DNA of 33,510 nt from a virus (taxonomy: Duplodnaviria > Heunggongvirae > Uroviricota > Caudoviricetes), in the IMG/VR virus record IMGVR_UViG_2703718823_000008, one strand, 5' to 3'. A model generated the notes under the pieces. The model had not been told where the DNA came from. It made no database searches and worked only from the letters and a program-made list of their open reading frames with translations. Below, in pieces: positions 32,916 through 33,393 of this stretch. The position numbers were made by a program, and so were the translations under genes. Position 1 is the stretch's first letter. Each line of letters begins with the position of its first letter.

Positions 32916-33060
32916 AAATAAAAAAATCCCGCAGTGCTCGGCGCCTGCGGGAAGAGAACGATGTTGACTAACCTGTTGGCGTTTTATTTTTATTTACCCG
33001 CAAAAAATGTAACGCAGCGTCATTATTGTGGCTACAGGTAATTTGCAGAAATGTGAATAA
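32916..33060 (-). repeat. I-J intergenic repeat unit 1: minus-strand terminator-capped element (candidate sRNA)
   Basis: A7-CCCGCAG-loop-CTGCGGG hairpin (terminator on the minus strand) plus conserved block AAAAATGTAACGCAGCGTCATTATTGTGGCTACAGG; duplicated at 33143-33300. Confidence 0.5.
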
Positions 33061-33142
33061 ATTCAGACTTTTTATCCGGTAGCGGGGGAGCGGAAGCCAG
33101 GCGGGTATCTGTGGAAGAAGACAGATAACATCGTGCCGGGTT

Positions 33143-33300
33143 TAAGGGATAAAAAAATCCCGCAGAATCAGCGGAGCTGCGGGAGAGAACGATGAAGATT
33201 AACGTTATGGAGTTATTTTTCAGGCATCAAAAATGTAACGCAGCGTCATTATTGTGGCTACAGGCAATTGCCGGAAATGTGAAGAATTTCAGAAATTTTA
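33143..33300 (-). repeat. I-J intergenic repeat unit 2: minus-strand terminator-capped element (candidate sRNA)
   Basis: Same conserved blocks and hairpin stem as unit 1, with a different loop sequence. Confidence 0.5.
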
Positions 33301-33314
33301 TTCCGTCATGACAC

Positions 33315-33343
33315 AGGCACCCTCCGGGGTGCCTGTTGTTTTT
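33315..33343 (+). terminator. Terminator-like hairpin just upstream of J
   Basis: AGGCACCC-TCCG-GGGTGCCT followed by GTTGTTTTT. Confidence 0.35.
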
Positions 33344-33393
33344 GGGCATAAACAGATTCAGACATCAGACATCAGACAGGAGAGGGGGACAGA

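Follow-up and report, generated by a model that had tools for sequence, protein, structure and literature searches.

In a lambdoid prophage, the gap that separates the tail genes I and J very probably holds two tandem, independently transcribed genes for Hfq-dependent small RNAs (sRNAs) of the PasB/EcOnc22-23-24 family, which lie on the minus strand and run against the late tail operon. The stretch of DNA analysed here, 33,510 nucleotides of IMG/VR virus record IMGVR_UViG_2703718823_000008 (Caudoviricetes; hereafter the window), is the late region of that prophage, with every other gene on the plus strand, and its I-J gap spans 32916-33393 (478 nt). The element is a member of an already known prophage sRNA family. 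What is new is modest: a paralogue in tandem whose seed has changed, the existence of arrays with as many as four cassettes, a conserved CRP-like site and the link between the names given to the family in enterohaemorrhagic (EHEC) and enteropathogenic (EPEC) Escherichia coli.

Two repeat units and their sRNA family

A repeat search of the gap paired 33003-33080 with 33229-33306 (78 nt, 87%), 32950-32989 with 33181-33220 (40 nt, 75%) and 32918-32934 with 33149-33165 (17 nt, 100%), the copies standing in a register of 226-231 nt; a 36-nt block is repeated exactly at 33003-33038 and 33229-33264. The same two units were found by nhmmer with a family hidden Markov model built from an alignment of 65 distinct variants, which two independent anchors had picked out of viral contigs. 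The model matched full-length units at 32919-33078 (unit 1, 116 bits) and 33150-33305 (unit 2, 137 bits) and no further unit over the whole window. Each unit, about 160 nt in length, combines a conserved CRP-like site and a weak predicted promoter with an A-rich RNA body and an intrinsic terminator that acts on the minus strand.

The terminator hairpin CCCGCAG/CTGCGGG occupies 32928-32934/32945-32951 in unit 1, with a loop of 10 nt, and 33159-33165/33177-33183 in unit 2, with a loop of 11 nt. Each hairpin is preceded on the plus strand by A7, which reads as U7 on the minus strand, and both fold as terminators (fold z = -2.6 for unit 2). Across 23 variants, the terminator helix is 91% paired and includes two compensatory pairs; the stem is nearly invariant, and loop length varies from 4 to 17 nt among the variants. 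A first-pass annotation made from the sequence alone had described about 480 bp between I and J, two copies of an element of roughly 150 bp, a conserved stem with differing loops and, from the A-run, a terminator for minus-strand transcripts, all of which the measurements above bear out.

The family had been described twice. PasB of EPEC E2348/69 is, according to Table S6 of Pearl Mizrahi et al. 2021 (PMC8550237), an 83-nt minus-strand RNA of prophage PP6 (NC_011601.1 1466343->1466261), detected by Northern blot (probe AATCCCGCAGTGATCGCGGAGCT) and by the ligation and sequencing of interacting RNAs (RIL-seq). Its level changed by log2 values of -6.8 and -2.4 in an hfq deletion and was higher under the 'non-activating' condition, and in RIL-seq it was nearly always the sRNA partner, joined to core and accessory mRNAs that include type III secretion and bfp genes; an unlabelled column of the data set, as we read it, gives 37 interactions (PMC8550237). 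The PasB region that we fetched lies within an I-J gap, antisense to the tail genes, between a tail assembly protein and gpJ (locus L002, 1262-1344, minus strand). In EHEC Sakai, the related sRNAs EcOnc22 (prophage Sp15), EcOnc23 (Sp14) and EcOnc24 (Sp11) were found by Hfq cross-linking with cDNA analysis (CRAC; Tree et al. 2014, PMC4104026, Table S2). They measure about 85 nt on Northern blots, are destabilised in an hfq deletion and were detected with a common probe, GGGAGAGAACGATGAAGATTAACTGATGAGTTA (PMC4104026).

The first 23 nt of this common probe (GGGAGAGAACGATGAAGATTAAC...) are identical to window positions 33181-33203 in plus sense, and therefore the RNA it detected is of minus sense. 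In Sakai, the I-J gap of Sp15 is laid out like that of the window, and the VT1-Sakai/Sp15 gap shows 94% identity to the half of the window gap that holds unit 2. Compared with PasB, unit 2 is 76% identical and unit 1 is 69% identical. Judged by sequence and position, EcOnc22/23/24 of EHEC and PasB of EPEC are one family at one locus. The two units of the window thus have homologues, in the same position and orientation, that are verified Hfq-dependent sRNAs, and the initial suggestion of a pair of sRNA genes antisense to the tail operon is upheld. The PasB entry of Table S6 (PMC8550237), in the part of the table accessible to us, names no EHEC homologue, whereas homologues are given for PasA and PasD; the term EcOnc22 is absent from a 2026 Pas survey (bioRxiv 10.64898/2026.05.13.724894), and in the accessible literature on either RNA the equivalence of PasB and EcOnc22 seems to be unstated. 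The targets of EcOnc22 were listed as unknown in a 2021 review (PMC7873438).

A scan of 32700-33510 with Rfam models at E <= 10 returned nothing relevant, the models for AgvB, AsxR, Esr41 and STnc100 being unmatched there, and over the whole window the gathering threshold was reached only by three STnc100 copies and two tRNAs, all outside the gap. The proposed comparison with known prophage sRNA families hence failed for the Rfam models and succeeded for the published PasB and EcOnc22/23/24, which match at the same locus. An identity with AgvB/AsxR was considered and rejected, as these RNAs have a different sequence and are located at the PR' moron site.

The 5' end of PasB, as placed by RNA-seq, lies 5-6 nt after a TAGTGT hexamer, and by analogy the window RNAs are predicted to run from about 33001 to 32920 (sRNA 1) and from about 33227 to 33151 (sRNA 2), the 5' ends of both being inferred. 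Predicted sRNA 1 (32920-33001, minus strand, about 80-82 nt) is a diverged PasB/EcOnc22 paralogue by its identity to PasB, the nhmmer match, its fold and its run of A-R-N triplets. It has an A-rich (ARN)4 5' part, the seed-region variant GUUAGUCAACAUCG, a terminator stem at 32951-32945/32934-32928 and U7 at 32926-32920. Predicted sRNA 2 (33151-33227, minus strand, about 75-77 nt) is of the canonical EcOnc22 type by its identity to PasB, the probe match, the nhmmer match and its fold, with an (ARN)3 5' part, the core AACUCCAUAACGUUAAUCUUCAUCGUUCUCUC, a terminator stem at 33183-33177/33165-33159 and U7 at 33157-33151. The first-pass annotation foresaw transcripts of about 100-150 nt; the lengths predicted here are about 75-82 nt. 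Both RNAs fold as an open 5' region followed by the terminator. Among the variants, an A-rich 5' cassette that differs between variant types is joined to the conserved family core AACUCCUUAACGUUAAUCUUCAU.

The seed of unit 2 is the canonical UUAAUCUUCAU, that of unit 1 is UUAGUCAACAU; the unit 1 core reads AACGCCAACAGGUUAGUCAACAU and is changed at three of the seven positions of AAUCUUC, which sets it apart as a paralogue whose seed has changed; its terminator loop resembles the loops of other variants. Close to their 5' ends, the RNAs carry A-R-N triplets in runs of four (unit 1), three (unit 2) and five (PasB), more than in shuffled controls. These triplets are a motif tied to Hfq binding (Tree et al. 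2014, PMC4104026), and together with the U7 tail they are compatible with Hfq-bound, Hfq-stabilised RNAs from both window units.

Predicted promoter and CRP-like site

The predicted promoters of the two units are identical. That of sRNA 1 (33006-33034, minus strand) has the -10 hexamer TACATT at 33011-33006, a 17-bp spacer and a weak -35, TAGCCA, at 33034-33029; that of sRNA 2 (33232-33260, minus strand), an exact repeat, has TACATT at 33237-33232, the same spacer length and TAGCCA at 33260-33255. Both fall within the 36-nt repeat, which had initially been noted as the conserved block of the element. The block is indeed an exact repeat, but it lies upstream of the RNA and is essentially promoter, since it holds the -35, the spacer, the -10 and only a few nt past the predicted start. 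The assignment draws on conservation across the family. All 65 variants have a TAnnnT hexamer at the -10 place, in 63 of them exactly 40 nt downstream of the CRP-like site, and 5-7 nt after it come a T-run and then a purine; TAGCCA or TGGCGC, 17 bp upstream of TAnnnT, makes a poor -35.

Upstream of the promoters lie the CRP-like sites TGTGAATAAATTCAGA (unit 1, 33052-33067) and TGTGAAGAATTTCAGA (unit 2, 33278-33293), each matching TGTGA-N6-TCACA at 9 of 10 positions and conserved in the family. In RNA sense this block reads AAATTTCTGAA(N4)TCTTCACATTT, which on the plus strand is TGTGA-N6-TCAGA, and the latter pattern is present in 40 of the 43 variants that had been found through the terminator alone. 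The window as a whole contains five 9/10 matches to the CRP core, as against 1.1 expected. A pattern scan for the block in one genome per species gave about the chance number of matches, of which only that in Escherichia albertii is plausibly relevant, and added no taxonomic breadth.

A class I CRP-dependent promoter is characterised by a 22-bp site with the core TGTGA-N6-TCACA, centred near -61.5 (or at -71.5 and further integral turns upstream), and by a weak -35. In the family, the centre of the site would lie at -59.5 to -61.5, depending on the exact position of the predicted start. The constant CRP-like site and the weak -35 suggest class I activation by cAMP-CRP from about -60. Spf is a CRP-repressed RNA. 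In the EPEC data set, PasB was higher in overnight static lysogeny broth (LB) than in exponential Dulbecco-modified Eagle medium (DMEM), and Spf showed the opposite behaviour (PMC8550237).

Several observations weigh against this account of the gap and its control. The right half-site is always TCAGA and never TCACA, and the same bases also fit TGAA-N4-TTCA, the core of Cra (FruR) sites. A generic promoter scan returned no sigma-70-like site at threshold. The spacer contains a better -10-like hexamer 16 nt upstream (AATAAT here, TATAAT in 31 of the 65 variants), which would give RNAs of about 91-98 nt and place the CRP-like site near -44.5. In the published comparison, not only the medium but also the growth phase changes between the two conditions (PMC8550237). 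At the level of the family, Rfam has no model and hence there is no curated membership threshold; the conserved seed of the family is missing from unit 1; and the copies whose expression has been shown are homologues, of types other than unit 1.

Between the two candidate -10 hexamers, TAnnnT is favoured by one array of E. coli OkiPb01681 (locus L273, described below), whose unit-2 promoter lacks the alternative hexamer and retains TAnnnT. The published CRAC cluster of EcOnc22 (2902714-2902774; PMC4104026) lies about 135 nt below the RNA, which the current Sakai record places at about 2902850-2902926; the coordinate version behind the 2014 table may have been another one. As the cluster coordinates cannot be aligned with the current record, the cluster is uninformative between the two candidate starts.

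Cassette arrays and the standing of unit 1

Sequence of the gap was found by BLAST in 803 of 5426 complete E. coli genomes (about 15%), at a median of three places per genome, and in 96 phage records, mostly of Shiga toxin (Stx)-converting phages, in every case flanked by the tail assembly protein and gpJ. The unit-2-type body is present in 542 of the complete genomes and the unit-1-type body in 84, with 90-100% identity to that of the window. The whole two-unit gap occurs in 85 complete genomes, with strains S19-651, STEC2018-607 and JNEC-KY179 among its carriers, and in none of the phage records. Among 123 loci matching the family profile, 114 have one unit, five have two, two have three and two have four.

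The I-J gap of E. coli OkiPb01681 measures 956 nt and contains four units (L273 383-1210); three- or four-unit arrays were also found at L092, L079 and L086. Within these arrays, no unit lacks a CRP-like site, promoter or terminator of its own; the RNA bodies vary from unit to unit. Unit 2 of L273 carries the unit-1 body of the window almost base for base, joined to a different promoter spacer and a different terminator loop. A third body type, CUCCUUAAGGUGACUAUUCGU, for which we found no published name, stands behind the same CRP-like/promoter module and ends in the terminator UCUCCCGU-loop-ACGGGAGA. It adjoins a canonical unit on the J side at L008 (9993-10158), L106 (4195-4360), L143 (7467-7632) and L032 (1776-1941), and is also found in L273 (827-992). 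In the window, the two units are separated by a linker of about 66-69 nt (33081-33149), within which TATCTGT...ACAGATA forms a short inverted repeat; a comparison of the linker with the 3' end of I and with the region before J gave no significant match, and similar linkers of about 66 nt separate array units in L273 (552-617 and 1005-1070; repeat family D3).

Does unit 1 work, or is it a decaying duplicate, an sRNA pseudogene beside a functional unit 2, with the array a neutral product of unequal recombination? The altered seed, the lower identity to PasB, the smaller number of genomes with the unit-1 type (84 versus 542) and the preponderance of single-unit gaps would all fit decay. Set against this, units 1 and 2 have identical promoters over 36 nt, unit 1 retains an intact terminator with U7, and its copies in 84 genomes remain 90-100% identical to that of the window. 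Its RNA body is moreover nearly identical in L273 and L086 despite differing promoter spacers and terminator loops. This distribution argues that the body has been maintained while modules were exchanged by recombination, rather than for simple decay, and we regard the pseudogene explanation as unlikely.

Tentatively, and with clearly less confidence than we place in the sRNA genes themselves, the I-J gap may be an expandable array of one to four sRNA cassettes, in which a constant promoter module, CRP-like and responsive to the carbon source, and a terminator module flank exchangeable bodies of at least three types (the canonical EcOnc22/PasB body, that of unit 1 in the window and CUCCUUAAGGUGACUAUUCGU). 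Recombination between the conserved modules would shuffle the cassettes among prophages, and their products would give a lysogen a variable, co-regulated set of riboregulators, titrated upon induction by the late tail mRNA. In the family literature we did not find tandem arrays of two to four units, the exchange of promoter and body modules or an invariant CRP-like site at about -60. A recent survey gives 28,355 bp as the smallest distance between pasB copies (Zhu, Shabalina and Storz 2026, bioRxiv 10.64898/2026.05.13.724894); it raises tandem duplication only to exclude it for PasA and PasD, applies the word 'tandem' to other sRNAs alone, and mentions neither a promoter nor CRP. Its BLAST filter probably missed neighbouring units because these are only 69-76% identical.

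Proposed mode of action, flanking features and known systems

In the lysogen, both units would be expressed and would act in trans by Hfq-assisted pairing near ribosome-binding sites. Each unit, read in RNA sense, would proceed from the CRP-like site through a weak sigma-70 promoter to an RNA of about 75-82 nt, in which an A-rich, unstructured (ARN)n 5' part is followed by a seed in single-stranded form and then by the GC-rich hairpin of the terminator with U7. The sequence CAUCGUUCUCUCC, which adjoins the terminator, has complementarity to a sequence resembling a Shine-Dalgarno motif plus AUG, and this suggests that translation is repressed; as the two seeds differ, so would the target sets. 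Activation would come from cAMP-CRP bound at the class I position, and CRP activation, if real, would account for the higher PasB level in overnight LB than in DMEM. Since the late mRNA crosses the gap, it holds perfect complements of both sRNAs, and pairing would therefore be unavoidable in lytic growth, the tail mRNA acting as a sponge or the paired RNAs becoming a substrate of RNase III. A search for complements of the seeds elsewhere in the window gave no match above chance.

The same complementarity might instead be the principal function, if convergent transcription or pairing with the I-J spacer tuned the expression of J or the processing of the late mRNA and action in trans were secondary. 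The strictly conserved location between I and J and a plus-strand terminator-like hairpin just before J would suit such a role in cis. Neither RNA, however, overlaps the coding sequence of I or J or the ribosome-binding site of J, the Hfq chimeras of PasB involve numerous unlinked mRNAs, core as well as accessory, with PasB nearly always as the sRNA partner, and no deliberate induction preceded the detection of the homologues in lysogens. A main role in cis is accordingly improbable, and more so than decay of unit 1.

Small proteins encoded on the plus strand of the gap are a far weaker explanation. Open reading frames (ORFs) do exist, of 39 amino acids in unit 2 (33192-33311) and of 26 (ATG at 32961) or 35 amino acids (GTG at 32934) in unit 1, the latter two both ending at 33041; each stands behind a GGAG-like sequence, the frame MKINV...NVKNFRNFIPS is open in several variant types, and some phage records annotate a hypothetical protein. 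Yet the ATG is missing in 27 of the 65 variants, ORF length ranges from 12 to more than 40 codons, and the frame in which the shared block is read is not the same in the two window units. Over the codon positions, substitutions are spread evenly (11:12:13), and premature stops or frameshifts interrupt 9 of 12 E2348-like variants, including that of the strain in which PasB was verified. The plus-strand ORFs have no PHROG match, and the residues they share merely mirror the conserved promoter and CRP-like blocks of the DNA. The earlier judgement that no convincing ORF is present thus holds across the variants with regard to start, length and codon position, and a coding function is very improbable.

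Just as remote is the idea that the hairpins serve the plus-strand RNA of the tail operon, as sites that stabilise, process or terminate it after I, rather than being parts of genes: they would form in the plus-strand mRNA too, and the first lies 12 nt after the stop codon of I, but the run of seven is A on the plus strand and U only on the minus strand, so that they are intrinsic terminators for minus-strand transcripts only, a conserved promoter-like module stands at a fixed distance on the minus-strand side, and minus-strand homologue RNAs of the right size were detected with plus-sense probes.

Two minus-strand sRNA genes remain by far the most probable content of the gap. This reading joins the literature on EHEC EcOnc22/23/24 with that on EPEC PasB. 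The family is abundant in E. coli, often with several copies per genome; its gap carries no annotation in any RefSeq genome examined, and Rfam lacks a model of it. If the array and its control are as proposed, prophages would deliver several co-regulated, differently seeded sRNAs from one hot spot; these would be wired to catabolite control through CRP, and the late tail transcript would be their built-in sponge.

Upstream of the gap, the tail assembly protein I (32235-32915, plus strand, stop codon at 32913-32915) appears in the ORF list and matches Pfam PF06805 (Lambda_tail_I, E 2.6e-14). Downstream, the tail tip or host specificity protein J starts with GTG at 33394 and runs off the window (33394-33510, plus strand); its translation begins VGKGGGKGHTPREAKDNLKST, and it is annotated as gpJ in genomes with 99.8% identity. 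Between the promoter of sRNA 2 and the start of J, and thus inside the late operon and outside the sRNA, promoter/terminator and inverted-repeat scans detected a strong plus-strand terminator-like hairpin with a 10-bp stem, a 4-nt loop and a following T-run (33313-33346). It is kept in relatives with compensatory variants (GGCACCC/GGGTGCC versus GGCATCC/GGATGCC), and is presumably read through under Q antitermination. Just 5' of the Shine-Dalgarno sequence of J, the heptamer TCAGACA is tandemly repeated in about 2.5 copies (33358-33383); about eight copies in E. coli OkiPb01681 (L273 1263-1318) mark it as a variable-number tandem repeat of the J leader.

The remainder of the window encodes antiterminator Q (4965-5654), a DNA methylase, two tRNAs, a moron resembling the C-terminus of TolA, a sialate esterase, a lysozyme, the terminase, the tape measure protein, L, K and I. 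The tRNAs, tRNA-Met (CAT, 7431-7506) and tRNA-Arg (TCG, 7516-7592), both on the plus strand, lie downstream of Q and the methylase and are followed by an ORF of 142 amino acids with a TolA C-terminal domain (7871-8299, plus strand), at the site where Stx phages hold their toxin genes. The three STnc100 sRNAs (RF02076) are at the PR' moron site on the plus strand, at 8406-8618, 9088-9283 and 9348-9549 (172, 121 and 164 bits); two of them are adjacent, and TGTTAAATnnCTCACA stands exactly 40 nt upstream of each copy (8366-8381, 9048-9063 and 9308-9323). With STnc100 triplicated and the unit of the I-J gap duplicated, this prophage has multiplied sRNA genes at two separate hot spots.

Among known systems, CyaR is a CRP-activated, Hfq-dependent sRNA of E. 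coli. If their CRP-like site is functional, the window units would likewise be switched on by cAMP-CRP; there is no sequence relationship between them and CyaR. The anti-sRNAs AgvB, AsxR and EcOnc03 (RF02702, RF02703) are, like the window family, short, modular, Hfq-binding prophage sRNAs with conserved parts and variable specificity parts, with ARN motifs and with several paralogues per genome. They differ in sequence, in their location at the PR' moron site after Q, in their length of 51-60 nt and in acting as sponges of core sRNAs. In the pairs OmrA/OmrB and PrrF1/PrrF2, the target-recognition regions are largely shared. These pairs resemble the window units in that paralogous sRNA genes stand side by side, with separate promoters and separate terminators (bioRxiv 10.64898/2026.05.13.724894), but they are chromosomal core genes, whereas the window units lie inside a phage structural operon, diverge in their seeds and number one to four per prophage gap.

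The closest relatives are the family members themselves. PasB shares with the window units the locus, the orientation, the CRP-like site, the TAnnnT -10, the A-rich 5' part, the core ACUCCUU..AUCUUCAU (with the seed altered in unit 1), the CCCGCAG/CTGCGGG terminator and U7; it differs in its 5' cassette and is only 76% (unit 2) and 69% (unit 1) identical. EcOnc22/23/24 lie in the same gap in the same orientation and are nearest to unit 2, by the 23-nt probe match and the 94% identity of the Sp15 gap; these Hfq-dependent homologues measure about 85 nt on Northern blots, as against 75-77 nt predicted for unit 2 of the window. The Sakai gaps contain one unit, whereas the window contains two, the additional unit 1 carrying a different seed and a different terminator loop.

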